Assembly: GCA_038229635.1 (NCBI GenBank)
Contig: JBBROG010000006.1
Location: 470 to 64,469 of the forward strand
Direction: 5' to 3'
Length of the DNA stretch: 64,000 bases
From: Gemmatales bacterium
GTDB lineage: Bacteria > Planctomycetota > Planctomycetia > Gemmatales > Gemmataceae
Shown here: positions 7,441-62,900 of the stretch, piece after piece
How the letters are laid out: each line of letters opens with the position of its first letter
Position numbering within the stretch: position 1 is the stretch's first letter
The notes under the pieces: model-generated
The model's input: the letters and a program-made list of their open reading frames with translations, nothing else
What the model was told of the DNA's origin: nothing
The model's database searches: none
Translations under genes and position numbers: made by a program

Positions 7441-7737
7441 TCAACTCTTCCGCGCGGGCTCAAGTTTGAAAACGCACCCGCCTTCCGGAATGAGCGATTC
7501 CGCCTGTCGAATGGCCGCGGAAAAGGCGGCCCCCTCCTTATTCTCCAGCTCATGCAGGCGCCTAAGAGCTTGCCTGAACAGAGGGCTCTGTACCAGCACA
7601 CGCCGCTCTTCTTCGGTCCCGGCAATTTCGCTAAACAGGCCCTCCGGAGTGAAGAGTTTGTTGCTCAGCGGCATGGCGTGGGTCTCGTTCGCCAAGACGT
7701 CCCGGATCCGCCGCTCGATCTCGTCGCGCTTTGTCAT
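7441..7737 (-). CDS. Hypothetical protein (98 aa)
   Basis: A clean ORF in a visibly AT-richer stretch, 12 nt downstream of the 105-aa ORF. No family recognised. Confidence 0.5.
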   Translation of the reverse strand: MTKRDEIERRIRDVLANETHAMPLSNKLFTPEGLFSEIAGTEEERRVLVQSPLFRQALRRLHELENKEGAAFSAAIRQAESLIPEGGCVFKLEPARKS

Positions 7738-7749
7738 TTCCGAAGTCCC

Positions 7750-8067
7750 CTAAGTGACGAACCGCACGTCCACGTCCCTCTGGATTTCGAGATAGATGGA
7801 CTCTTGCTTTGTCTTGCTCTTGAAGTCTCGCAACACCTCTTCGAGTTCGGCAACTCGCGCCTCCTCCAGAATGACCTTGAACGCCTTGTGTTCGTCCAGC
7901 GCCTGCGAACCGTCGGCCATTCGGTAAGCGCCTTCAACGTGGCCGAGGTAGGTCCAACCGACGAAACGCACGAAGAGTTCCATTCTCAATTCCGCCGTTT
8001 CGCTCGACAGGTCGCGCCCGTCGTTGTCGTACACCGGGATGTAGAACAACGCCTTGACCTTCGCCAT
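7750..8067 (-). CDS. Hypothetical protein (105 aa), weak DUF3574-like pattern
   Basis: A clean ORF 22 nt downstream of the phosphoesterase gene. Segments such as FYIPVYDNDGRDL...GWTYLGHVEGAYR...TKQESIYLEI are only loosely reminiscent of DUF3574. Confidence 0.5.
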   Translation of the reverse strand: MAKVKALFYIPVYDNDGRDLSSETAELRMELFVRFVGWTYLGHVEGAYRMADGSQALDEHKAFKVILEEARVAELEEVLRDFKSKTKQESIYLEIQRDVDVRFVT

Positions 8068-8089: not shown

Positions 8090-8575
8090 TCATTCTACCA
8101 CGACCGTCTCCGCCTCGCGCGTCTGGAGGTCGAGGACGACGAACGTCTTCGTCCTGGCCCGGTGCAGGGCGCCGGGGTTGATGACGCGCGTCGGCCCGAC
8201 CTGATGTTCCTCCGCCTGGTGCGTGTGCCCGTAGAAGAGGAAGTCGAACGCGCCGCTCTGCCCCAGGTCGTGCAGCAGGTCCCGGTCGTCGCCGTGGACG
8301 AAGGCGATCTTCACACCCTCCAACTCCACGAAGCCGTAGCCCTCGTGCATCGTCTCGCCGATGCCGTGGACGGCCTGGCGGATGGCGTGCCGCTCCGTGT
8401 CGCAGTTGCCGAAGACGAAGTGAGCCGTGAAGCCCCGGAAGAGCCAGACCGTCTCCGCGTCGTCGAGGTCGCCGCAGTGGAGGATCGTGTTGATCTGGCG
8501 CTCCTGCAAGAGCTTCAGCGCCTTCTCGACGGTGTCGTGACGGGCGTGCGTGTCGCTCAGGACGCCGATGCGCAT
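8090..8575 (-). CDS. YfcE/MJ0936-like metallophosphoesterase
   Basis: Internal ATG at 8575 is preceded by AAGGAGG. Motifs are MRIGVLSDTH, HCGD, GNCD and GHTH. Confidence 0.8.
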   Translation of the reverse strand: MRIGVLSDTHARHDTVEKALKLLQERQINTILHCGDLDDAETVWLFRGFTAHFVFGNCDTERHAIRQAVHGIGETMHEGYGFVELEGVKIAFVHGDDRDLLHDLGQSGAFDFLFYGHTHQAEEHQVGPTRVINPGALHRARTKTFVVLDLQTREAETVVVE

Positions 8576-8719
8576 GGCAAATCCTCCTTCCCCGGCCCAT
8601 TGTACCGCCGGGGGCACGGTCCGCGTACCGATTCCGCCCGGCGCGGCTACCCGGCCGGGCGGCGCCCGTCTATCATGGGAGGTCAGACGCGCACCGCCGG
8701 CACGACAGGCCCGACGACC

Positions 8720-9796
8720 ATGCCGCCCCTGACCGCCGCCCTCACCAAAGACCTGGTGGACTTTCTCACCCCGCACCTGGGGGGCGGCCAGGCCGAAATG
8801 CGCCTCACGCTTGCCCTGGGCGGTTGTGCGGCGCTCGACGGACTCGACTACAAGCAGTCAGGGATACTCCTGGCCTTCAACGTGGTGACGAAACTGGAGA
8901 AGCACGGCGACTACCCGCCCGGCCGGCGGGCGGTCTGCACCCTCCTGGAGTCCCTGGCGGAAGAACTCGTCGGCCGGCGCGACGAGATCCAGAGCCTGCT
9001 CGACCGCCTCGAAGGCGACACGATGCTGGAGGCTCTACTCGGCCTGGATTTCGCCGAGCAGGACCGGGCGTTCGCGGACGCCCTGGCGCGCGACAACGCC
9101 GCCGCCTGCCTGATCTACGGGCCGCACGGCCACGGGCAGCGCTGGCTCGTGAACCGACTGTGCCGCGCCCATGTGCCCCGCGCCGAGCCTCTGGTCTACG
9201 ACTTCAGCCGCCAGGCTCTGCCGCGCGACGTCGGCTCGGTGTGGCGCGACCTCGCCGGGCGCCTCGGCCTGGAGCGGCCGCGCGACGGCTCCGACGCCGC
9301 CCGCGCGCCCGTCGTCGGCAGCCTGTGCAAGCGCCTCGCGACAACTCCGGTGGCTCTCGTCTTCTTCTACGCGGACCTGATCGGCCCGGCGATGGTCCTG
9401 CAACTGCTGACGGCGTTCTGGCGGCCGCTGCGCGACAAGGTGCGTACCTACCTCCCCGCCCGGCGCCAGCCGCTGCTGATGTTCCTGGTCGACCACGGCA
9501 CCTACCGCAAGTACCGGCCGGACTGGTTGCTCCGCGACGACCTGCCGGCCAACGGCCCGCCGCCCGCCGTCGTCGTCCTACCCCCCCTGGTGCCGTTCAC
9601 CGAGTCGGTGCTGCGCGACTGGTTGCGCGACCACGGCGACCGGCTCGACGTCGCCGCCCGGGTCAAGCTCGACGCCCGCGTCGGGGAAATCGTCGTCGAG
9701 GCGGGCGGCGAGCCCGAAGGGGTGCTGGAGTGGGTCTGCGAGGAAAACGAGCCGAATTCCTGGCACGCGAAGGAGAGGGCATGGCTAAGAATTTGA
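8720..9796 (+). CDS. Adaptor-like protein: helical N-terminal domain plus P-loop NTPase-like domain with degenerate Walker A
   Basis: This is the in-frame start inside track ORF 8054..9796 (alternative ATG 8675). It has GPHGHGQRW in place of GxxxxGK[ST] and the Walker-B-like segment VALVFFYAD. It overlaps the MoxR gene by 16 nt. Confidence 0.6.
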   Translation: MPPLTAALTKDLVDFLTPHLGGGQAEMRLTLALGGCAALDGLDYKQSGILLAFNVVTKLEKHGDYPPGRRAVCTLLESLAEELVGRRDEIQSLLDRLEGDTMLEALLGLDFAEQDRAFADALARDNAAACLIYGPHGHGQRWLVNRLCRAHVPRAEPLVYDFSRQALPRDVGSVWRDLAGRLGLERPRDGSDAARAPVVGSLCKRLATTPVALVFFYADLIGPAMVLQLLTAFWRPLRDKVRTYLPARRQPLLMFLVDHGTYRKYRPDWLLRDDLPANGPPPAVVVLPPLVPFTESVLRDWLRDHGDRLDVAARVKLDARVGEIVVEAGGEPEGVLEWVCEENEPNSWHAKERAWLRI

Positions 9797-10680
9797 GCCG
9801 CCCCCGCTACGCGGGGACGGCGCCGCCTCCGCCGGGGCGCCCGCCGTACTTGCCCGACGAGCCGCTGGTCGAGGCGGTCAACCTGGCGCTGTTCCTCGGC
9901 CGGCCGCTGCTGCTCAAGGGCGAGCCCGGCTGCGGCAAGACGCGCCTGGCGCGGGCGGTCGCCGACGAGCTACGCTGGCACTACGTCGAGTGGCGCGTCA
10001 AGTCGACCAGCCGCGCCCGCGACGGCCTGTACGCCTACGACTCCCTCGCCCGCCTGCGCGACGCCCAGCTCGCCGCCGCCGGGGCCGGGGCGACGGCCGA
10101 CGACCCGGAACGCTACGTCCGTCTCGGCAAGCTCGGCGAGGTCTTCGACCACGACGAGGGGCCGTCGGTGCTGCTCATCGATGAAATCGACAAAGCGGAC
10201 ATCGATTTCCCCAATGACCTCCTCCACGAGCTGGAGGACCTGTGGTTCGAGGTCGAGGAGACCGGCCGGCGCGTCGAGGCGAAGCACAAGCCGCTCGTGG
10301 TCGTCACCAGCAACGACGAGAAGGACCTGCCCGACGCCTTCCTGCGCCGCTGCCTGGTCCACGTCATCGAGTTTCCCACGCCCGAGCGGCTCGCGGAGAT
10401 CGTCAACGCCCATTTGGCCCCGCCCAAGTCGGCGGGGCCGCTGCTCCGGAAGGCGGTCGAGCGCTTCAGCAAGTTGCGGAAGCGGATGGAAGCGGAGAAG
10501 GGCGAGGCGGGGAAGAAGGTGAGCACGAGCGAGTTGATCGACTGGTGCCGCGTGCTGAAGGACTTCGGCGACAAGGACGAGGCCCTGAAGGCGCTGGACG
10601 GCCGCCTGCCCTACCCGAGTGTCCTGCTGAAGAGTTGGGAAGACCACCGCCGCTACCTCCGGGAGGCGGAATTGGAGTGA
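9781..10680 (+). CDS. MoxR-family AAA+ ATPase
   Basis: Walker A is GEPGCGKT and Walker B is LLIDEIDKA. NDLLHELE and LRRC are MoxR-like. This is an internal ATG of track ORF 8824..10680. Confidence 0.85.
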   Translation: MAKNLSRPRYAGTAPPPPGRPPYLPDEPLVEAVNLALFLGRPLLLKGEPGCGKTRLARAVADELRWHYVEWRVKSTSRARDGLYAYDSLARLRDAQLAAAGAGATADDPERYVRLGKLGEVFDHDEGPSVLLIDEIDKADIDFPNDLLHELEDLWFEVEETGRRVEAKHKPLVVVTSNDEKDLPDAFLRRCLVHVIEFPTPERLAEIVNAHLAPPKSAGPLLRKAVERFSKLRKRMEAEKGEAGKKVSTSELIDWCRVLKDFGDKDEALKALDGRLPYPSVLLKSWEDHRRYLREAELE

Positions 10681-10684
10681 GCCG

Positions 10685-11758
10685 ATGGCCGCGCCGCCGC
10701 TCTCGGACCTGTTTTATCGCCTGCGCGAGGCCGGGCTGTCGCTCGGCGTGGACGACTACCGCGCCCTGCTCGACGCCCTCGGCGCCGGCTTCGGCCTGCC
10801 CGACCGGGTGGCCCTGGCGAGGCTCTGTACCGCCCTGTGGGTCAAGTCCAGCGAGGACCGGGCCGCCTTCGACTACCATTTCGCGCGGGCGCTGGAATCG
10901 AAGCCGCTCGGCGACGCCGTGCCGCCGACGGCCCGCGAAACGCCAACGCCCCCGGCGCCGACGGCCGACGGCCCGTCGCTGGTGTTGCCGGTGGCGCCGC
11001 CGCCCGAGCCGGCCGCCGGCGCCGGGCGGGGCGAAAGCCTCCAGGCGCTGGCCGCCTTGCCGGCGGCCGCCACGGAGGAGGAGACTCGCCTGGGGCGCTA
11101 TTTGCACGCCGCCGAACACGACCCGATCACCCGGCGGCAGATGAAGCAGGGCTGGCGCCGCCTGCGCCGCACGATGCGCCAGGGGCCGCCGACCGAGCTG
11201 GACGCCGAGGCCACCGCGAGGCGTGCCGCCGCGGACGGCTTCCTGCTGGAGCCGGTCCTGCGCCCGCCGCGCGTCAACCGCGCCGAGCTGGTGCTGCTGC
11301 TCGACCGCGGCGGGTCGATGGTCCCCTTCCATGACCTGGCCAGGACGCTGGCGCGGACCGCCGTGCGCGACGGCCGTCTCGGCTCGGCGGACGTCTACTA
11401 TTTCCACAACTGCCCGGCGGAACACCTCTACCGCGATGCCGCTCTGGCCGACGCGCGGCCGCTGGCGGAGATGCTGGCCGGCGTGCCGCGCGCGCACGCC
11501 TCCGTCCTGATCTTCAGCGACGCCGGCGCGGCCCGCGGCGGCTTCAGCGGACCGCGCGCCGCCCACACGCGCACCTTCCTGGCCCGGATGCGCGGCCACT
11601 TCCGCCGCCTCGCCTGGCTCAACCCGATGCCGGCGGCGCGCTGGCGCGGCACGACGGCCGGCGCCGTCGCCCGCGTGGTGCCGATGTTCCCGCTCGACCG
11701 CGCCGGCTGGCAGGCGGCGGTCGGCGCCCTGCGCGGCCGCCGCGGGAGGGCGTCATGA
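10685..11758 (+). CDS. von Willebrand factor A (vWA) domain protein, CoxE-like
   Basis: It starts 4 nt after the MoxR stop. It has a MIDAS-like segment LVLLLDRGGSM and a C-terminal WLNP motif region. Confidence 0.75.
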   Translation: MAAPPLSDLFYRLREAGLSLGVDDYRALLDALGAGFGLPDRVALARLCTALWVKSSEDRAAFDYHFARALESKPLGDAVPPTARETPTPPAPTADGPSLVLPVAPPPEPAAGAGRGESLQALAALPAAATEEETRLGRYLHAAEHDPITRRQMKQGWRRLRRTMRQGPPTELDAEATARRAAADGFLLEPVLRPPRVNRAELVLLLDRGGSMVPFHDLARTLARTAVRDGRLGSADVYYFHNCPAEHLYRDAALADARPLAEMLAGVPRAHASVLIFSDAGAARGGFSGPRAAHTRTFLARMRGHFRRLAWLNPMPAARWRGTTAGAVARVVPMFPLDRAGWQAAVGALRGRRGRAS

Positions 11759-14175
11759 GCGAACGGGTCGCGCGGAAGCGCCTCGACGCCTTCCGCGGAC
11801 AAACGGGCGACGACGCCGGCCTCGACCTGGCCCGCCACGCGGCGTTCCCGCTGGCCCTCACCCCCGACTTGCTCTACCGCATTTGGGCGCGGTTCCGCTG
11901 CGACGCCGGCGGGCGCGAGTTGCGCGTCCCCTGGGTCGCCGTCGCCGACCTGCTGCTGTCCGGCCTGTGCCGCGAGGTCGGCCGCGAAGTCTTCGAGCTG
12001 GAGCCGGAGGTGCGAACGCTCTTGCTGAGCGAGTTGGAAACCGACCCGCGCTTCGGCCCGCCCCGGGCGCGCGAGCTCGCCGAATTCCTGATCGCGCTCG
12101 CCGCCCCCGACCTCGACAGCCTCGACCCGGACGTCCAGCAACTGGCCCGCGCCCAGCGCCTGATGGCGCTGACGCGGCTGCGCCCGCAGCAGGCCGCCGA
12201 GGAGTTGGCGTCCGCCCTCGCGGGCTTGGGCGGGCAAGAGGCGGGCGAGCAAGGGCGCGTCGCCGCCCTGGTGGAAACCCTGGCGCGGCCTTTGCCGGGC
12301 GCGGCGCTCCTCACTTCCTACGCCCGCGCCGTGGGACACCTGGCCCGCGGCCTGCCGGCGCCGGTCCCGGACGACCTGCGCGAACTAGCCCGGACGAGCG
12401 GCGAAATGGTCATCGGTTCCGTGCGCGTGCCGCTGCCGCGCGAACTCCTCGACGCCGTGCGGCCGGCGCCCCTGACGCCGCCGGCGCCGGTCGTCGGCCA
12501 GGTGGTCATTGCCACGACCGTCCGGTACGCCTTCAACCTCCTATGCCGTTCCCTGGTCGGGGGACGGTCCCTCGGCGCCGATTCCCACCTCGGCTGGCAC
12601 CCCTGCGGCGAGCGCTGCTGGGAAGTGCGCGTGTACCTGGTCGACTCTCCCGAGCCGGACGGGGTCGCGGAACGGGTGCGCCGCATTATCTCAGAAATCA
12701 ATCCTATAAACGTGTTTCTGATCGAGTTTGCCTACACAGCAAGGTCGTCCGACCGCGCGAGAGCGGTGGTCGCGTCGGAAGTGAGGTGCTTCGTCAGTGA
12801 GACGGAGGAGAGCGTGCCGACTCCGAAGTCTTACGCCCCCTCTGTCGAATGGTTGCGCCGGGCGCGCGCGTTGTGGCCGGGAGGAGGCACCGAAAGGTTC
12901 ACGCCCTTGCCGGGGACAAGTGCCGTGATGGGTCCGGTGGTGGCGACCGAGGGCGAAGACAGCCTGCGGCGGGCGCTAGGGCAGGAACACGAGGCGGCGG
13001 CCGTGTCGCCGGACGCCTTCGGCCTTTCGCGGGTTCTCCACGCCTGCCGCTGGACCGAATGGCTGTTCCTCTGCGGCGTCAACAGGGATTCCCGAAGGAA
13101 CGTGGGCTTTGACGAATCTTGGCAAACGGCGACACACGAAGTCTGCGATCTCGCCCTGGCGCTACTGACCGAAGAAGGAGACATCCTCTCCCGATCTAAA
13201 ATCCCGCACAGCATCAGCTGGGGTTTGGCGCGCCTCGGCATTCCGGAGTTGTGGGAGAGAGGGCTCACGGGTCGCGGTGTCGACGTCGGGTTAGTCGACT
13301 CGGGGGTGGACGTCGAACACCCCGCGCTCGGCGGCGCGGTCGGGCGCGCCGTCCGGTTCGACGAACAAGGCCGGCGTGTCGAAATCCTCGCCCCGCGGGG
13401 CGGAGTCGATCACGGGACGATGTCGGCTGGCATCCTCGTCGGCCGGCGGTTCGGCCGGATGATCTGCGGCGTCGCCCCCTATGCAGGGCTCGCCGCCGCC
13501 GACGTGCTCCCGAACGGGTTGCAGGGCACCAACGCTTCAATCGGGGCGGGTTTGGATTGGATTCTCGGCCAATCGGTTCGGGTCGTCTGCGTCCCCCTGG
13601 GGTTCCGCGACCCCGGCCTGAGTGAGAATATTCTCTCTCTTATTGCTTCGCGCGTCAGGGATGCCGGAGTCTTGCTGGTTTGCCCCACCGGGAACGAAGG
13701 GCCTGGGGTCAGCCACGCCCCCGGAAATTCGCCGCACGTCCTGTCCGTCGGCTGGTCCACGCAAGAGGATAAGGTCGCGGACATCTCCTCCAGCCAGCGG
13801 TTCGAGCGCGACGAAAAGCCCCTGGTCCCCGACCTCGTCGCGCCGGGCGTCGATATCCTGTGCCCCAAACCGGGCGGGGAGTTTGACACGATCTCCGGCG
13901 GAAGCCCTGCCGTCGCCCTTGTCGCCGGGCTGGCGGCGCTCCTCTTCCAGGCCAAGCCGACGGCGACGGCGGACGAGGTCGAGGCGGCCATCCTCGGCTC
14001 GTGCGAACGCCCGCCCGGCATGGACCCGGAGCGCGGCAACCACGGTATCCCCTACGGCCCGCGCGCCCTCGACCTCCTGCTCGGGCGGACGCCTTCGCCC
14101 AGCCCCTTCGCCCTGGCCTGGCCGGAGCCGACGAAGTCCAAGAAGCGCTCCGCCAAGAAGAAGGGGAAGAAATAA
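11755..14175 (+). CDS. Large cytoplasmic protein: helical N-terminal region, unknown middle region, C-terminal subtilisin-family (S8) peptidase
   Basis: There is an ATGA overlap with the vWA gene. S8 catalytic motifs are GLVDSGVD (Asp), DHGTMSAG (His), PTGNEG (oxyanion Asn) and SGGSPAVALVAG (Ser). No signal peptide is present. The tail is Lys-rich (KSKKRSAKKKGKK). Confidence 0.8.
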   Translation: MSERVARKRLDAFRGQTGDDAGLDLARHAAFPLALTPDLLYRIWARFRCDAGGRELRVPWVAVADLLLSGLCREVGREVFELEPEVRTLLLSELETDPRFGPPRARELAEFLIALAAPDLDSLDPDVQQLARAQRLMALTRLRPQQAAEELASALAGLGGQEAGEQGRVAALVETLARPLPGAALLTSYARAVGHLARGLPAPVPDDLRELARTSGEMVIGSVRVPLPRELLDAVRPAPLTPPAPVVGQVVIATTVRYAFNLLCRSLVGGRSLGADSHLGWHPCGERCWEVRVYLVDSPEPDGVAERVRRIISEINPINVFLIEFAYTARSSDRARAVVASEVRCFVSETEESVPTPKSYAPSVEWLRRARALWPGGGTERFTPLPGTSAVMGPVVATEGEDSLRRALGQEHEAAAVSPDAFGLSRVLHACRWTEWLFLCGVNRDSRRNVGFDESWQTATHEVCDLALALLTEEGDILSRSKIPHSISWGLARLGIPELWERGLTGRGVDVGLVDSGVDVEHPALGGAVGRAVRFDEQGRRVEILAPRGGVDHGTMSAGILVGRRFGRMICGVAPYAGLAAADVLPNGLQGTNASIGAGLDWILGQSVRVVCVPLGFRDPGLSENILSLIASRVRDAGVLLVCPTGNEGPGVSHAPGNSPHVLSVGWSTQEDKVADISSSQRFERDEKPLVPDLVAPGVDILCPKPGGEFDTISGGSPAVALVAGLAALLFQAKPTATADEVEAAILGSCERPPGMDPERGNHGIPYGPRALDLLLGRTPSPSPFALAWPEPTKSKKRSAKKKGKK

Positions 14176-14181
14176 CCTCTC

Positions 14182-14736
14182 ATGAGTGAACGTCACAAAC
14201 CGACGCCGGCCGAAATCGCCGCGGCGCGCGGCCGGCGCGTCCCCGACATCCTCGCGCCGGGGCTGAAGGTTCTCTTCGTCGGCATCAACCCGAGCCTCTA
14301 CTCGGCGGCGGTCGGCCGCCACTTCGCCCGGCCCGGCAATCGCTTCTGGCCGGCGCTCCACGCCGCCGGCTTCACCGACCGCCTCTTCTCGCCCTTCGAG
14401 GATCGTCTGCTGCTCGAACGCGGCCTCGGCGTCACCAACATCGCCGACCCCGCCACCGCGACCGCCGACGAATTGACCGACGAACAACTCACCGCCGGCG
14501 CCCGCCACCTCGCCCGCAAGGTGAGGCGCTACAAGCCGGCGGCGGCCGCCTTCCTCGGCATCAGCGCCTACCGCGTCGCCTTCGCCAAGAAGGACGTCCG
14601 CGTCGGCCCCCAGCCCGACCGCCTCGGCGGCGCCGCCGTCTGGGTGCTGCCGAACCCGAGCGGGTTGAACGCCCACTACCAACTTGCCGACCTGGCGCGG
14701 CTCTACGGCGCGCTGCGCCGGGCAACGCTCGATTAG
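14182..14736 (+). CDS. mug: G:T/U mismatch-specific DNA glycosylase (Mug/TDG family)
   Basis: Motif LFVGINPSLYSAAVGRHFARPGNRFW matches the Mug GINPG...NRFW signature. It starts 6 nt after the peptidase gene. Confidence 0.8.
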   Translation: MSERHKPTPAEIAAARGRRVPDILAPGLKVLFVGINPSLYSAAVGRHFARPGNRFWPALHAAGFTDRLFSPFEDRLLLERGLGVTNIADPATATADELTDEQLTAGARHLARKVRRYKPAAAAFLGISAYRVAFAKKDVRVGPQPDRLGGAAVWVLPNPSGLNAHYQLADLARLYGALRRATLD

Positions 14737-25100: not shown

Positions 25101-26072
25101 TCAGATTTCGTCCTTGTCGGATCGGGCGACGGTCATGAATGCTTCCTCCAGGTCGGTTTGCACTTCGCGGAACTGCGCCACGCCCAGGCCGGCCGCGACG
25201 AGGGCCGCGAGCAGCCCGGCCAACTCCTCTTCGCGCTTGGCGGTGCGGAAGCGGACGACGGCCTCGGCCGGCGAGGACGTGACCTCCGCGCCCGGCTCGA
25301 TGTGCCGCCGCACGACCTCCTCGACGCGCGCGATGGGCTCGGCGTGCGTCAGCAAAATCTCCATCGGCCGCAACTGATTGAGCTGGCGCGAGATCTCTTC
25401 CAGCGTGCCGAGGGCGCGGAGCCGCCCGCGCGTGACGATGGCGACCCGGTGACAGACGCGGGCCAGCTCGGGCAGGACGTGGCTGGTGACGAGGAGCGTT
25501 TTCCCGCGCGCCGCCAGGTCGAGGAGCATCTGACGCATCTCGATCCGCGCCTGCGGGTCGAGGCCGTTGGCCGGCTCGTCGAGGATGAGGACTTCGGGGT
25601 CGTGCAGCAGGGTGCGGGCGACGGCGACGCGCTGCTTCATGCCGTGGCTCAGCGCCTCCACGTAGAGGTCGCCGAACGTGCCGGCGCCCGCCAGGTCGAG
25701 TACCTCGCCGACCCGCTTCGCCCGCGCGCGCCGCGGAATGCCGAAGGCGGCGCCGAAGAAGTCGAGGTACTCGGCGACGCGCATGTTGTCGTAGGAGCCG
25801 AACGTGTCGGGCATGTAGCCGACCAGCCGCTTCAGCTTGCGCGCCTCGCGCACGCAGTCCGCCCCGGCGACCGTCGCCGAGCCGCTCGTCGGGCGGGCGA
25901 GGCCGACCAGGATCTTGATTGTCGTCGTCTTGCCCGCGCCGTTCGGCCCGACGAAGCCGAGGATCTGCCCGCGCTCGACCGACAGCGTGAGCCGGTCCAG
26001 CGCCAGGAAGTCGCCGTACTTCTTCGTCAAGTCCTTGGTCTCGACGACGGGTCGGTCGGAATTCATGATCAC
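25101..26072 (-). CDS. ABC transporter ATP-binding protein
   Basis: Walker A is GPNGAGKTT, the signature is LSHGMKQR, and Walker B is LILDEP. Confidence 0.9.
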   Translation of the reverse strand: MIMNSDRPVVETKDLTKKYGDFLALDRLTLSVERGQILGFVGPNGAGKTTTIKILVGLARPTSGSATVAGADCVREARKLKRLVGYMPDTFGSYDNMRVAEYLDFFGAAFGIPRRARAKRVGEVLDLAGAGTFGDLYVEALSHGMKQRVAVARTLLHDPEVLILDEPANGLDPQARIEMRQMLLDLAARGKTLLVTSHVLPELARVCHRVAIVTRGRLRALGTLEEISRQLNQLRPMEILLTHAEPIARVEEVVRRHIEPGAEVTSSPAEAVVRFRTAKREEELAGLLAALVAAGLGVAQFREVQTDLEEAFMTVARSDKDEI

Positions 26073-28585
26073 TTCTCCGCCGCCGTCCGGCCCGTGATTT
26101 CGAGTTCGAGATATTCAATCGTCCATTTCTCGTCCACCTGACGGACCCCCGTCCCGCCGCCCTCGCGCGCGCCGCCGACGGTCAGGTTGACGTGCAGGCC
26201 GCCGCCCTCGTCCGGGAGGAGCAGGCGCGCGTCGGCGATGTCGACGCGAACGGGGTCGAAGGGGCTTTCCGCGCGGTGGATTTCCGCGGGGACGCCATCC
26301 GCGAAGACAGCGACCGTGACCCGGCGGCCGGGGGCGTCGATCTTGGCGGTCAGCCGAGCCCGCTCGACCGCGAGCGGCAGTACGGCGGCGGGGAGTTGGA
26401 AGCGCAGGCGCATGTCGGCCCCCTGGCGCGACTCCAACGTGAGCCGAGTCGCGCCGCCGCGCACGAGGCGCCGGCAGGGCAGGAACGGCGCCGGGATGGT
26501 CACGCTCGTTCCGGGGGCGGGGCGCTCCAGGCGCAGCGGAATGCGGAGGAGAGCCATCCCGACCGTCCGCGCCTCCGGGGCCAGCGCGAACGGCATGTCG
26601 ATGGGCCTGGCCCACGCCAGGAGGACGGGGCGGTCATCCAGGCGCCCGACCTCGGAAGGGCGCAAGAAGGTGCGGTAGAGGTCCTGGCGCCGCTGCTGGC
26701 GGTCGCTCAGCACGGCGCCGGCCGCGAACTGCCCCGGCGGCAGGACGTCGCCGCCGCCGGCGCGGAAGGCCCCGTCCGGCCCTAGCCGGATCGACAGGTC
26801 ACGCACGCCCGGCGCGTGGAGCAGCGCGTCTTCCAGGTCGTGGAAAGGCCCCGTCGCCAGCGTGCCTTCGACGCCCTCGGGTCCGAGGCGGGCCGCGGCC
26901 GCGAGCGGCTCTCCCGTCGGAGCCGTGAAGCGGTAGGGAGCCCGGCGCACGCCGGCGGGCAGCGACAGGTTCTCCCAGTGCCAGGAGTCGAGGTCGGTCC
27001 GGATCAGGCGACGATTCTGCTCTTCGAGACCCGTCATATCCAGTTCAAAGAAGCCCCCCTTCGTCGCCCCGACGTCCGCCGGCCCCGAGTCCGGCCGGTA
27101 CAGCGCCAGCAGCCCGTGGACCGGCGCTTCCTCCGTGCCGGCGACGGCGTCGACGACCTGAGCGGCGGCCACCGTGGGCGGCACGGCCCGGCGCGACCAC
27201 TCGCCCAGCGCGACGAACGCGCCCGCCGCGCCCAGCGCCGCCGCCGGACCCAGCCAGCCGAGCAGTTCCGGCCGGCGCCCTCTCCTAAGAATGAGTCCCA
27301 GCGCCAGCGTCGCCAGCAGAAAGGTCCCGAAGATCAGCCCCGCCGTGCCGCGGCCGACGACCGCGTAGCCGATCTCCTCGGTCAGCGCGGTCTGGAACGC
27401 CTCGTCGGGGGCGGAATCCTCTTCCGGCCGCGGCGGCAGTTCGACCGACAGCACTTGCAGATGGGGCAGCGACACGGGAAGCGCGGGGAAGAACTCGAAC
27501 GGCGAGGGCGGGTCGGTGCGGGTGCGCGGCCGATACCAGCCGCGCGGGCCGAGCGTCGTGAAGACGACCTTTCCTCGCCCCACGCGCCGGACGAACCAGG
27601 CGGGCCAGCCGTCGACGGTGTGCCGCACCCGCTCCTCCGCCGGCAGGAGAACGCGGACGAAGTCGACGGGCCGCTCGTGTCGCTGGGCCGGCGCTTCGGC
27701 GACATTCGGCCCCGGCGGTTGCGACTCGACCTGGAAGGAAGTCAGGCTGACGCGGTCGACGACCTGGAAATCGAGGGCGTCGCCGAGGAGGGGGGCGATC
27801 ACGTCCGGCTCGACCCGGTCCAGCATCACCCACAGAGTGCCGCCCCGCTCCACCCACCGGCGCAGCGCCTGCGACCCGGCGGGGTCGTGCGCGACGCGCC
27901 CGGAGGCGAGGACGAAATGGTCGACCCCGTCGAACGCCTCGGGCGCCGGCGGCATCGGGCCGGCGCCGACGATCTGGACCGACTCGGACAACTCGTGCGC
28001 CTGCCGAAAGGTGCGGACGAGGCGGAGGGCCTCGTCGTTGGCGGAATCCGGTTGGGGGAGTTGGCCAAAAACGATCTCTTCGGGCGGTTCCTCGTCGAGC
28101 AGGACCGCCGTGAACGCCGCGCGCTTCTGGTAAAGCACGGCGCGGGAGCGCACGCGCTCCTCGCCGCGGGGAAGAATCAAGCGCTCCTCCTTCCCCGCGC
28201 GCTCGTAGAGGAGCATCTGGATTTCGCGGGCGCGGGCGGAAGGCTGCGGGCTCGCCGGGCCGACGAGCAGCCACGTCGCCAGGGTCGCGCGGGCGGGCAC
28301 CCAGACGTCGCGGCCGTACTGCAAGTCGGGCCGCCCGTCGTAGAAGACGAGGACGCGGGCCTGGCGGTCGACGTCGGTCAGATTCGTCAGGCTGAAGTCG
28401 AACGCGCCCCAGCTCTCCGTCGTGGAGACGCGGACGCCGCCCGGCAAGACGCCGCCGAGGCGCAGCGGCGGCGTCTCGTCGACTTGGGCCGTCGCCCGAG
28501 GGCAGGCGAGGAGGCAAAGGCAGAGCGCCGCCACTCGGCGGGCCGAGGCCGGGCGAGGAGGCACGTCACGGTCGGAAAGATCCAT
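26069..28585 (-). CDS. Large signal-anchored protein of unknown function, first gene of ABC operon
   Basis: It is 838 aa with an N-terminal signal (AALCLCLLACPRATAQ) and one internal TM segment. There is a 4-nt overlap with the ABC ATPase start. Confidence 0.7.
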   Translation of the reverse strand: MDLSDRDVPPRPASARRVAALCLCLLACPRATAQVDETPPLRLGGVLPGGVRVSTTESWGAFDFSLTNLTDVDRQARVLVFYDGRPDLQYGRDVWVPARATLATWLLVGPASPQPSARAREIQMLLYERAGKEERLILPRGEERVRSRAVLYQKRAAFTAVLLDEEPPEEIVFGQLPQPDSANDEALRLVRTFRQAHELSESVQIVGAGPMPPAPEAFDGVDHFVLASGRVAHDPAGSQALRRWVERGGTLWVMLDRVEPDVIAPLLGDALDFQVVDRVSLTSFQVESQPPGPNVAEAPAQRHERPVDFVRVLLPAEERVRHTVDGWPAWFVRRVGRGKVVFTTLGPRGWYRPRTRTDPPSPFEFFPALPVSLPHLQVLSVELPPRPEEDSAPDEAFQTALTEEIGYAVVGRGTAGLIFGTFLLATLALGLILRRGRRPELLGWLGPAAALGAAGAFVALGEWSRRAVPPTVAAAQVVDAVAGTEEAPVHGLLALYRPDSGPADVGATKGGFFELDMTGLEEQNRRLIRTDLDSWHWENLSLPAGVRRAPYRFTAPTGEPLAAAARLGPEGVEGTLATGPFHDLEDALLHAPGVRDLSIRLGPDGAFRAGGGDVLPPGQFAAGAVLSDRQQRRQDLYRTFLRPSEVGRLDDRPVLLAWARPIDMPFALAPEARTVGMALLRIPLRLERPAPGTSVTIPAPFLPCRRLVRGGATRLTLESRQGADMRLRFQLPAAVLPLAVERARLTAKIDAPGRRVTVAVFADGVPAEIHRAESPFDPVRVDIADARLLLPDEGGGLHVNLTVGGAREGGGTGVRQVDEKWTIEYLELEITGRTAAEK

Positions 28586-59974: not shown

Positions 59975-62900
59975 TTAAGGGTACGCCGAGGGAGTCGTTC
60001 GCTGCCCGCGCAGGCTGGCTCGTCGCTGTCGCCAGACCTCGGGGTCGAGGGGGCCGACCGTCAGACCGCCGTCCCCCTTCAGTTCCAGGCCGGTGAGCGC
60101 CTCGGCCCACAGCCGGGCAAACTCTTCACTGCCGGCCAGGGCGGCCGGCGGGAGGTGCCAGCCGCGCACGTTGCCGTCCAGACCCGCCGTGTAGGCGGTC
60201 GGACTCGCGGGGTCAAAAGCCGCCGCCCAAACCTGGGGGCGGTGCGGCAGGGCGGGGCCGACGGGAGCCCCGGAGGCCGCGTCCCAGAAGCGAGCCGTGC
60301 CGTCGAAGCTTCCGGTCAGCACCAGGCGCCCGTCCGGGCTGTAGGCGATTGCTCTCACCAGGCCGGCGTGGGCCGGCTTGCGGTAACGGGATTGCCCCGT
60401 CGCGACGTCCCACTGATGGAGTTCGGCCTTTCGCCCGGTGGGTTGATGCCCCCCGCTGGCGGTCGCGAGGGTTCGGCCGTCGGGGCTGAAGGCCAGGGCG
60501 TAGACCTCGTCCGCGTGCCCCAGCGGTTGGCCGATGGCGAGCGCCTGGGAAGCGTTCCAGAGGCGGACCATCCCGTCCGCCCCGGCCGTGGCCAGCGTCT
60601 CGCTGTTCGGGCTGAAGGCCAGGGCTTCGACCCGACCCCCGTTCGGGGAGAGCTCGTTCAGTCGCTCGCCGCTCCGCGACCAGGTGCAAACCTTGTCGCC
60701 GCTGGTGGAGCGTGTCGCCAGCATCGTCCCATCGCGATTGAAGGTGAGAGAGGAGACGAAGCCCGTCTGGCGCCAGCGCTCGTGATTCAAGGGCGGCCCG
60801 GCCGGCTGGAGAGAAACCGTATTCCAGCACTGGACCGTACTCCGTAACGGAACCCGCCCTTCCTTCTTCTCCCCGGCCACCCCGGAACCCGTGACGAACG
60901 TTTGCCCGTCCGGGCTGAAGGCCACTCCTTGAGGGATGCCCTCGACGGGGACCCGCCGGCTGACGAACTGCCCCTCGACTTTATCCCAGAGGCGAACTTC
61001 ACTTCTCGTCTCCTCGATGGGGGCAGTCCACTTCCTGCCGACGTCCTCGGTGACCGTGAGCAGGGCGTGCCCGTCAGGACTGACCGCCAGGGCGCGGACG
61101 AGTTGGTACTTGTGTTCCAGCACCAGGCCGTTCGTCTGGCCGGGCGCCTCGCCCCAGAGCCGCGCCGTGCGATCGGCCGTGGCGACGAGGAGCGTCTTCC
61201 CTTCTGGGCCGAAAGCAAGGACCGTGGCGGCGCCCGCGTGAGGAAGGGGCGTCCCGAGGGGCCGGGCGGTGTCCGCCTCCCAGAGGCGAGCGACCCCGTC
61301 TTTTCCGCCCGTCAGGAGGGTGCGGGCGCCGGGGCCGAAGGCGAGCCGCGCGACGGTCCCCCCGTGCGCCACGGCGGCGAAGACCTGTTGGCCGGTGACC
61401 GCGTCGTACAGAGTCGCGTCCGCCCCGGACGCCAGGGCGAGCAGCGGCTTCCCGTCGCGGAAGGCCAGGGCCGAGGGGGCGTCGGCGTACTCGGGGGACG
61501 GGTCGAGAAGCCGGCCGCCGGCCGCGTCCCAGTGGAAGACCTGCGTAAAGGCTTTCGCCCGCGTGCGGACCACCGACTGGGTGAGGCAGGTCGCGCCGTC
61601 GGCGCTGAACGCCACGGAGCGGATGAGGATGGCAGCCGGCGGGCCGCCGGCCCGATGCGCGAAGTCGCGGAGGACGCCGCCCGTGGCCGCGGCGCACAGG
61701 AGGGCGCGGCCGTTCGCCGTCCCGGCGAGGAGGGTCTTGCCGTCCGGGGAGAAGGCGACGCTGAGGACGGCCTCGGACGGGGCCGCGCCCCAGAGGCATT
61801 CTCCCGTGCTCATGTCCCACAAGTGGAGGCCGGGTTCGCGGACCGTCGGCGGCTTCTCGAAGTTGCCGGACGCCGTCGCCAGCGTCGTGCCGTCGGGGCT
61901 GAAGGCGAGGGCGTTGACCCGGTCGAGTTGGAGGAAGGGTTCGCCGCCGGTCTCGTCCGCCGTGAGGTCGTAGCGCCGCACGGCGCCGTCCGCACTCCCG
62001 ACGACGAGCGCCTTGCCGTCCGGGCTGAGCGCGGCCGTCAGGACGTCCCGCGGCAAGCGGTAATACCCTTGCAACGGCCGCACCTGCCGCCCCCACGCAG
62101 CGAGGTTCAGCCGGGCGACGCGCCCCAAATCGGCGTCCTCTCCGTCCGCCGCCGCGCGCAGGCCGCGCTGGAGCCAGAGCAGGCCCGCGTGGGCCTCGCC
62201 GCGCTCGGACAGCGCCAGCCCGTGGTCGACGAGGAGGCCCGCCGTCTCCCCGTGCGCCTTGCGCACCCGCGCGCCTTGCGCGCGCTCGCGCGGCACGACC
62301 TCCAGGGCGTAGTGCAACAGGCCGGCGAACACGAGCAGCACCGCGACGGCCGCGACGGCGCCGACCGCGGACAGCGTCGGGTTGCGCCGGCACCAGCGCG
62401 CCCCCTTCTCCGCCCGCCCGACCGGCCGCGTGTGGAGCAGCGGCCGGCAATCCAGGTAGCGCCGCAGCTCGTCGGCGAGTTGGCCCGCGCCGGCGTAGCG
62501 CCGCGCCGGATCCTTGTGCAGACACTTCAGGCAGATCAACTCCAGATCGTGGTCGATGGCGGCGTTGAGCTGCCCCGGCGGCACCGGCTCGTTATCCATC
62601 ACCTGGCGCAGCGTCTCGACCGGCTCGGCGGCCTGGAACGGCGGGCGGCCGGTTGAGTGCGACCGTCCGCCCGCTCGGCCGGTGGAAGGCGCGGTAGACC
62701 ACGCCCATGCCGCCCTGGCCGATTCGGGCGTGCAGGTCGTAGTCCCCGAGCGTGGCCGGCGCGGCGGCGCCCCCGCCGAACGAAGGTCGGTCCCGGCCAT
62801 TCAAGGCGTAGGGGAGGGTGGCGGATTGCGACCCGTCGGCGGCGCCATCGAAGGTCCCCGACCGTTCCATCGTCGGCAATTCTTCGAGGCCGGCGCGGAG

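Follow-up and report, generated by a model that had tools for sequence, protein, structure and literature searches.

The four genes and their products

We analysed a stretch of 64,000 nucleotides from contig JBBROG010000006.1 of a Gemmatales bacterium (the whole stretch is referred to below as the window; its GC content is 0.71), in which four translationally coupled genes on the plus strand, spanning positions 8720 (or 8675)-14175, appear to make up a MoxR-vWA-iSTAND ternary conflict system with a subtilase as its output. The layout of this operon was taken from the open reading frame listing and from direct reading of the junctions. Gene 1 (8720..9796, 358 amino acids, TGA at 9794-9796) encodes a protein with an EAD8 and an iSTAND domain. 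Its start is uncertain: the protein in the public record is read from the ATG at 8720, and an alternative start at 8675 would give 373 amino acids. Gene 2 (9781..10680, 299 amino acids) encodes an AAA+ ATPase of the MoxR-type partner class. Its first 16 nucleotides are shared with the end of gene 1, and its ATG at 9781 is preceded by AAGGAGAGGG, which contains an AAGGAG site. Gene 3 (10685..11758, 357 amino acids) encodes a CoxE-type vWA protein and begins with an ATG at 10685 after a gap of 4 nucleotides from the end of gene 2 at 10680. Gene 4 (11755-14175, 806 amino acids) shares the sequence ATGA at 11755-11758 with the end of gene 3, and its product consists of an N-terminal module, an orphan middle region and a Peptidase_S8 domain. 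Direct reading of the junctions therefore bears out the coupled four-gene unit of the original prediction, which had given the same overlap, gap and shared ATGA, and the motifs that it had listed are likewise all present, namely the degenerate GPHGHGQR of gene 1, the motifs GEPGCGKT and LLIDEID of gene 2 and the DRGGSM of gene 3. GC content at third codon positions (GC3) in the called frames of the operon is 0.85-0.94, with genes 1-3 at 0.90-0.94 and the flanking thiolase gene at 0.95. Because this matches the flanking housekeeping genes in a genome of 71% GC, we regard the called frames as real coding sequence. Rfam families and tRNAs were looked for across the window and none was found, nor were there promoter-like sites or an excess of terminator-like sites.

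The product of gene 1 matches the Pfam family iSTAND (PF19995) with an E-value of 1.3e-15 (58.6 bits against a cutoff of 24, profile positions 2-162 of 163) at about 9038-9487, and the family EAD8 (PF19961) with an E-value of 5.9e-8 (33.7 bits against a cutoff of 27) at about 8738-9010. Its Walker A position is degenerate, reading GPHGHGQR with the Walker lysine replaced by glutamine. Since each of 59 homologues has Gly154 and Gln155, the change from lysine to glutamine is a trait of the family. The Pfam iSTAND profile is likewise matched by each of the 59 homologues that occupy the place of gene 1 in related loci. The inactive-NTPase adaptor, which had been taken for an unusual variant, is instead what defines this sub-type, where it is universal as the third component. 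EAD8, an effector-recruiting adaptor according to Kaur et al. (PMC7159879), is found on only one of the 59 iSTAND proteins of the clade, namely that of the window, with EAD9 occurring in five of the homologues, CHAT in three and trypsin in one. The cyanobacterial iSTAND partners mostly start with a coiled-coil-like segment rather than an EAD (alignment A3, loci L002-L081), and the profile built from this alignment weakly resembles coiled-coil entries of the PDB (E 0.03-0.8). The EAD8 head of gene 1 therefore stands in the place of that segment. We also considered whether the N-terminus of gene 4 might be a second EAD8 and rejected this, as a BLASTP comparison of genes 1 and 4 was blank and Pfam gave no EAD match at E≤10.

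Gene 2 has intact Walker A (GEPGCGKT, about 9919-9942) and Walker B (LLIDEID) motifs. Its Pfam matches to AAA (1.6e-12) and AAA_5 (4.1e-11) are both above cutoff, bpMoxR is matched weakly (4e-4) and, like AAA_3, falls below cutoff, and its sequence matches in the PDB span the P-loop only. The protein is without long N- or C-terminal extensions, and no Trp motifs occur in its 46-residue N-terminus. Across 63 related loci its median identity to the ATPase in the corresponding place is 58%. Its probable membership of the MoxR class rests on the AAA_5 match, on its partnership with a vWA protein and on this identity to the ATPases of iSTAND-type loci. The product of gene 3 matches the Pfam family VWA_CoxE at 1.6e-14 (54.4 bits against a cutoff of 26.4) and the NCBIfam model SAV_2336_NTERM at 2.9e-16, the latter below its cutoff. 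Its metal ion-dependent adhesion site is non-canonical, reading DRGGS, and the motif of the family in 69 homologues is D-x-[DKG]-G-S-M-V-P-F-H; the N-terminal ~70 residues are strongly conserved. PADLOC has no model that matches gene 1 or gene 3, and its matches are local to the P-loop for gene 2 and to a generic subtilase for gene 4.

Residues 1-235 of gene 4 (11755..12459) form a helical N-terminal module that is conserved among homologues. A query with residues 1-490 retrieved 51 other proteins, the common part being the first ~230 residues only at 43-51% identity. The C-termini of these 51 proteins are mutually unrelated and include GUN4, pentapeptide, TPR, SIR2_2, FHA, CHAT, TIR_2, CHASE2, kinase, FGE-sulfatase, Band7, vWA and helix-turn-helix domains. 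The AlphaFold2 model of full-length gene 4 was confident in the S8 domain only, a mixed alignment having probably blurred the N-terminus, and residues 1-240 were therefore modelled separately. This gave an all-helical structure with two small hairpins at a mean confidence (predicted local distance difference test, pLDDT) of 93.8, for which a Foldseek search of the PDB returned no significant match (best E 0.58). In related loci from genomes and metagenomes alike the module lies always directly 3' of the vWA gene. By its position and by the published description, though not by sequence, it agrees with the linker termed "vWA-L" in Kaur et al. 2021.

Downstream of the module, residues 236-484 (12460..13206) make up an orphan middle region of about 260 residues, which has no homologue. 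A full HMMER scan of 1.84 billion representative proteins returned only the protein itself, a word-index search and Pfam gave no match, and its AlphaFold2 confidence is low (pLDDT 30-50). Its GC3 of 0.68-0.86 is frame-consistent, which supports the view that the region is likely coding. Along gene 4 the module has a GC3 of 0.88-0.96, but over positions 12500-14000, in the orphan region and the S8 domain, the value is down to 0.68-0.90, and this drop suggests that the output part of the gene may have been fused on later or may derive from a source of lower GC. The possibility that the orphan region is a diverged I9-type propeptide was rejected at the sensitivity of hhalign, which gave a probability of 0.1 against a profile of 57 propeptide-like N-termini taken from the closest S8 relatives. 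The N-terminus of gene 4 is hydrophilic and without a signal-peptide-like stretch, as judged by direct reading rather than by a predictor, in agreement with the earlier statement that the protein has no signal peptide. At its other end residues 776-806 and the stop codon (14080..14175), where pLDDT is low, comprise a low-complexity Pro/Ser segment followed by a Lys-rich basic tail. The last residues (792-806, 14128-14172) are strongly basic, reading TKSKKRSAKKKGKK, and this tail could bind nucleic acid or anionic membranes.

The Peptidase_S8 domain occupies residues 485-775 (13207..14079) and is supported by Pfam, by an alignment with savinase and by Foldseek. The Pfam match covers residues 506-750 (5.8e-32, 111.6 bits), with no Pfam match upstream of it in the protein. 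The alignment with savinase places the catalytic and oxyanion residues at Asp515 (13297-13299), His553 (13411-13413), Asn647 (13693-13695) and Ser717 (13903-13905). The model of this domain has pLDDT values mostly above 90 and target-normalised TM-scores of 0.85-0.90 against subtilisins in Foldseek. The complete S8 catalytic set claimed at the outset is present insofar as all four of these residues are kept. The claim does not extend to their surroundings, as gene 4 departs from the nearest S8 family at about 33 of the ~119 columns where that family is at least 90% conserved, including the signatures HGTH, which has become HGTM, and SMATPH, which has become SPAVAL. In the latter segment (residues 717-722, 13903-13920) a proline follows the catalytic serine and the conserved proline four residues on is an alanine. 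These changes correspond to M222P, which is named in the titles of peptiligase PDB entries among the Foldseek matches, and to the P225A of subtiligase. Substitutions at these engineered positions could have shifted the chemistry or the specificity of the enzyme.

The nearest relatives of this S8 domain are stand-alone, leaderless subtilases of ~400 residues, which have the same catalytic residues and 45-52% identity to gene 4 over the domain. These relatives (e.g. P0055-P0072) have an N-terminal I9-like propeptide of ~110 residues and lie in ordinary gene contexts. On three unrelated contigs the relative is followed by a small gene of 113-120 codons without a Pfam match (L082:6200-6541, L083:6513-6875, L085:6349-6711), and at least two of the three small genes resemble an I9-propeptide-like domain. 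The relative and its small downstream gene may form a conserved pair of protease and trans-inhibitor. Unlike these stand-alone enzymes, which keep both the propeptide and the small downstream gene, gene 4 has lost the propeptide and has diverged at many positions that are invariant in the family.

Related loci and comparison with known systems

Related loci were collected by scanning with an alignment of the gene-4 module, which found 351 module-bearing loci in a set with one genome per species and 245 in metagenome contigs. The best 80 loci of each collection were kept and searched by phmmer with the four proteins of the window. Where the upstream DNA reached far enough to judge, the genes stood on one strand in the order iSTAND-ATPase-vWA-module in 61 of 66 loci from genomes and in 48 of 49 from metagenomes, so that the four-gene synteny, which had been named as a check on the original prediction, is conserved elsewhere. 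Nearly all of the named genome loci belong to filamentous cyanobacteria (Nostoc, Calothrix, Scytonema, Tolypothrix), with a few from Chloroflexota. Their GC content, like that of all 160 related loci, lies between 0.36 and 0.55 as opposed to 71% for the genome of the window. Median identity to the window proteins is highest for the MoxR ATPase (58%) and decreases through the vWA protein (47.5%) and the module (44%) to the iSTAND protein (28%), an order that fits a conserved motor and a diversifying sensor.

The part of the last gene that follows the module is hypervariable. Among the 66 genome module proteins we found FGE-sulfatase in 13, CHAT in 9, Peripla_BP (Peripla_BP_6/ANF_receptor) in 5, Response_reg in 5, AAA_35 in 4, CHASE2 in 3, Caspase in 3, WD40 in 2, Macro in 2 and Peptidase_S8 in none. 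A protease in this output slot has precedent, because up to 12 of the 66 proteins bear caspase-like peptidase domains (CHAT or Peptidase_C14). No match to Peptidase_S8 or to the orphan region was found in the 160 related loci, and there is no S8 domain in the 51 other module-bearing proteins either, in keeping with the earlier suggestion that a subtilase is an unusual output. The window is the sole high-GC, the sole S8 and the sole EAD8 example in this sample.

Four MoxR-vWA ternary systems were defined by Kaur et al. 2020 in eLife, who predicted them by comparative genomics (PMC7159879). Their subsystem 2 combines a STAND protein that is inactive and in many cases headed by an EAD, a MoxR ATPase without extensions and a vWA protein of CoxE type whose N-terminal domain has four helices. 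A variable effector comes after the vWA domain, to which it may be fused, and in the split layout described by Kaur et al. 2021 (PMC8195603) a vWA-L linker and the effector are coded by a separate gene. Because gene 1 consists of EAD8 and iSTAND, the locus belongs with the MoxR-vWA-iSTAND ternary systems and not with VMAP. The likeness extends to an inactive STAND third component headed by an EAD, a probable MoxR-type ATPase without VMAP-type extensions, a CoxE-type vWA protein with a conserved N-terminal segment, and a variable output placed behind a helical linker in the adjacent gene, as well as to gene order and coupling. What sets the window apart is the S8 output, which the texts of PMC7159879 and PMC8195603 do not list for these systems, together with the orphan region; among the iSTAND loci of its own clade it further differs by its EAD8 (1 of 59) and by its GC content (71% as against 36-55%). 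We put the probability that the locus is a complete MoxR-vWA-iSTAND ternary conflict system of split layout, with the role in defence and the signalling that this predicts, at about 0.65.

Systems of the VMAP sub-type are predicted to follow the same logic and, like the window, combine a core of MoxR and vWA with EAD adaptors and a variable effector. They differ in having VMAP as the third component and Trp-containing motifs in the N-terminus of MoxR (PMC7159879), whereas the window has iSTAND and no such Trp motifs, and Pfam scans detected no VMAP domain in any of the four proteins. The VMAP label of the original prediction was thus right as to the MoxR-vWA-centred type of ternary conflict system described by Kaur, Aravind and colleagues and wrong as to the sub-type. 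A conserved MoxR and vWA pair is also found in the Esr clusters (MoxR, vWA, beta-propeller), which are reported to be required for the threat response of Schaalia odontolytica to an epibiont (bioRxiv 10.64898/2026.09.08.750141) and in which the pair is placed between a sensor that diversifies and an output. Esr is the only member of the wider group for which experiments were found. Unlike the window, Esr uses a surface-filament beta-propeller as its sensor and a kinase/FHA phosphorelay acting on Esx secretion, and has no iSTAND protein, linker module or protease. With this 2026 preprint the statement that none of these systems has been characterised no longer applies to the superfamily; for the iSTAND type it still appears to hold in the literature found.

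An ATPase paired with a leaderless subtilase is further known in a defence context from IetAS, which consists of the ATPase IetA and the S8 protease IetS. IetAS is a system of two genes without vWA, iSTAND or linker module, as compared with the four genes of the window, and the matches of gene 2 to IetA/IteA cover the P-loop only (25.8 bits over 28 residues for PADLOC IetA, and 27 bits against a cutoff of 510 for NCBIfam IteA). An identity with IetAS was rejected on the grounds of this P-loop-local match and of the four-gene layout with vWA and iSTAND. S8 proteases are also coupled to latent effectors in defence modules in which proteolysis activates the effector (PMC12642450). In contrast to the sensor-coupled S8 modules described there, no partner of the metallo-beta-lactamase type is adjacent to the operon in the window.

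Proposed mechanism and competing explanations

In the mechanism that we propose, the fast-evolving and nucleotide-inactive iSTAND protein would act both as the sensor of a cue from an invader and as a scaffold. A ring of the MoxR-type AAA+ ATPase, with the vWA protein as its co-chaperone, would then use ATP to remodel a complex that holds the gene-4 protein by means of its N-terminal module. This remodelling would unmask the cytoplasmic subtilase, which would otherwise be kept latent through the 485-residue N-terminal part of the protein. Latency is attributed to that part because gene 4 lacks the I9-type propeptide found in its closest relatives. Once active, the protease would cut proteins of the host or the invader, or a latent toxin, so that the infected cell would stop growing or die, and the EAD8 on the iSTAND protein might recruit a further EAD8-tagged partner coded elsewhere in the genome. 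We infer the function and mechanism of the locus, i.e. its role in defence, the direction of signalling, the latency and activation of the protease and its substrates, from the comparative-genomics model and from known MoxR/vWA pairs. A more specific and rather doubtful proposal is that gene 4 encodes a new zymogen, in which the helical module and the orphan region, in place of an I9 propeptide, hold the S8 domain inactive until MoxR/vWA and ATP switch it on mechanically once iSTAND has detected an invader.

A number of observations weigh against a defence system working in this manner. There were no relatives of the module in viral contigs. Scans of the flanking genes with Pfam and PADLOC detected no defence systems, so the locus does not lie in a defence island, and genes 1 and 3 are themselves without a PADLOC match. 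No obvious candidate for a protease substrate was seen in the 64 kb, and there is no second EAD8 in them, as a phmmer search with the EAD8 segment against all open reading frames of the window matched gene 1 only. By the published description such systems typically, though not necessarily, bear their EAD a second time on an effector, whose gene may lie inside or outside the operon. Activity of the S8 domain is not assured, because the motifs beside the catalytic His and Ser are eroded. The equation of the module with vWA-L draws on position and description, and the one module match that also has a vWA domain (P0020) bears it at its C-terminus, in the output slot. No experimental study of iSTAND-type systems was found in the literature. 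Lastly, many outputs of the clade resemble ligand binders (periplasmic binding proteins, CHASE2, FGE-sulfatase, WD40), which permits signalling in the opposite direction.

With such reversed polarity the C-terminus of gene 4 would be a sensor or bait, made up of the orphan region and of an S8 domain that is possibly catalytically weak. Its cue would be an invader molecule, such as a protein resembling a substrate or a protease inhibitor of a phage. MoxR and vWA would signal from there to iSTAND, and EAD8, as the effector-recruiting adaptor of Kaur et al., would recruit an effector coded elsewhere. We regard this as unlikely, though as a serious competitor, since the ligand binders and receivers counted above in the slot (Peripla_BP_6/ANF_receptor 5, CHASE2 3, Response_reg 5, WD40 2, FGE-sulfatase 13), the alteration of about 33 of ~119 conserved S8 columns, among them residues beside His and Ser, and the proposal by Dore et al. 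(PMC10907252) for VMAP-type loci, where the vWA protein bears lectin domains diversified by a diversity-generating retroelement, are all in its favour. It is difficult to reconcile with the retention of Asp, His, Asn and Ser in a confidently modelled fold, which would not be expected of a pure decoy, and with the toxic or catalytic effectors (CHAT, caspase, TIR, SIR2) that the same slot also bears. The iSTAND protein, moreover, is the fastest-evolving member of the set at 28% identity, as befits a sensor, and the window holds no EAD8 partner for it to recruit.

The two remaining explanations are less likely than either the conflict-system reading or reversed polarity. The MoxR and vWA proteins could be a housekeeping chaperone that matures, assembles or metallates a dedicated intracellular protease or regulates its turnover and has no conflict role, in parallel to CoxD/CoxE, NorQ/NorD, CbbQ/CbbO and RavA/ViaA. 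The vWA protein is indeed of CoxE type, the characterised MoxR-vWA pairs are maturation factors (e.g. PMC9976466, PMC13036017), the flanks include haem and cytochrome genes, and GC3 of genes 1-3 matches that of the host. We nevertheless consider a chaperone of this kind quite improbable, as the last gene of the cassette swaps among dozens of unrelated domains, its inactive STAND partner diverges fast and carries adaptor, caspase or trypsin domains, and its distribution is patchy, with cyanobacteria and one outlier of 71% GC. Even less probable in our view is that the operon is a non-working, decaying relic, assembled from an acquired iSTAND cassette and a recent fusion to a subtilase fragment, with an orphan region that was formerly non-coding or read out of frame. 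Such a chimera would account for the orphan region, which is poorly modelled and has no homologue in 1.84 billion representatives, for the fall in GC3 from 0.88-0.96 to 0.68-0.90 past about nucleotide 12500 and for the eroded S8 signatures; it would also agree with the finding that the proteins of genes 2, 3 and 4 are singletons in clustering at 90% and that a word-index search for close relatives of gene 1 returned gene 1 alone. Decay is hard to square with 806 uninterrupted codons in which GC3 is the highest of the three codon positions in all 150-nucleotide windows and the order GC3>GC1>GC2 holds in most, with the kept catalytic residues or with the tight coupling of the operon. An identical protein also occurs in the Logan assembly of SRR19962015, which may go back to the sample that gave the NCBI contig.

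Neighbouring genes and significance

The operon is flanked by genes of housekeeping type, as the original prediction had it and as Pfam and PADLOC scans of the neighbours bore out. They encode a thiolase, a multihaem cytochrome/TPR protein, a Metallophos_2 protein, a Mug/UDG glycosylase, a DUF1223 protein, glutamyl-tRNA reductase, cytochrome c assembly and POT transporters. The window also codes for 3-keto-disaccharide hydrolase, PA14-cytochrome c and HEAT_2 proteins, which, with a WD40 protein that has kinase-like matches and with the GC of 71%, hint at a member of the Planctomycetota. The Metallophos_2 phosphoesterase gene (8093-8575, minus strand, Pfam 7.8e-31) specifies a compact protein of 161 amino acids with a host-like GC3 of 0.95 and is divergent from gene 1, about 100-145 nucleotides upstream of it. 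Metallophosphoesterase-like enzymes are among the protease-associated defence effectors of a 2025 preprint (PMC12642450). The protein could be a substrate or a partner of the subtilase, though its gene is absent from the 80 related genome loci. Two small open reading frames lie beyond it on the minus strand (7441-7737, 98 amino acids, GC 0.60; 7750-8067, 105 amino acids, GC 0.57). Their GC is clearly below the 0.71 of the window, their GC3 is 0.73-0.78, and neither frame has a significant Pfam or PADLOC match, the best being an insignificant one to 'Unstab_antitox' (E=0.044); both may have been acquired recently. Of the "AT-richer three-gene unit" described earlier, these two frames at 57-60% GC stand, and the third member is the Metallophos_2 gene with its ordinary GC3.

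Downstream, a gene for a glycosylase of the Mug/UDG superfamily (14182-14736, plus strand) starts 6 nucleotides past the stop codon of gene 4. It may be co-transcribed with gene 4 because of this spacing, the common strand and the lack of an obvious ribosome-binding site, and the same arrangement of gene 4 and Mug/UDG is repeated in Logan contig L001. The Metallophos_2 and Mug/UDG genes and the small open reading frames were considered as conserved parts of the system and rejected, all being absent from the 80 related genome loci. At a distance of 45 kb from the operon, a 941-amino-acid WD40 beta-propeller protein (59975-62800, minus strand) matches PADLOC PD-T4-6 kinase-like models partially with its N-terminus (E about 1e-10), an architecture of serine/threonine kinase and WD40 of a sort common in conflict and signalling proteins. 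A protein of 838 amino acids (26069-28585, minus strand) has no Pfam match at 1e-5 and clusters at 90% with 'Fis'-like fragments of 38-56 amino acids, probably an artefactual grouping caused by a conserved helix-turn-helix at the C-terminus.

MoxR-vWA ternary systems are a large predicted family of immune or programmed-death systems that is enriched in multicellular bacteria, and they have been proposed as forerunners of the apoptotic and innate-immune logic of animals. The type to which the locus belongs is itself published and represented in Pfam, and, because output swapping is a hallmark of these systems, the locus is not a new kind of system. Its value is limited by its being a single, unreplicated example, in which the new output domain is the very thing for which the family is known. 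New features are the use of an S8 domain as output, the orphan region, an EAD8 at the head of an iSTAND protein of this clade and the high-GC host. The locus places the cassette beyond low-GC filamentous cyanobacteria and Chloroflexota, and it indicates that the output slot can take a subtilase, whose proteolysis is an easily assayed read-out. If the zymogen proposal were true, gene 4 would represent a chaperone-gated, rather than cleavage-gated, mode of protease activation in bacterial immunity.

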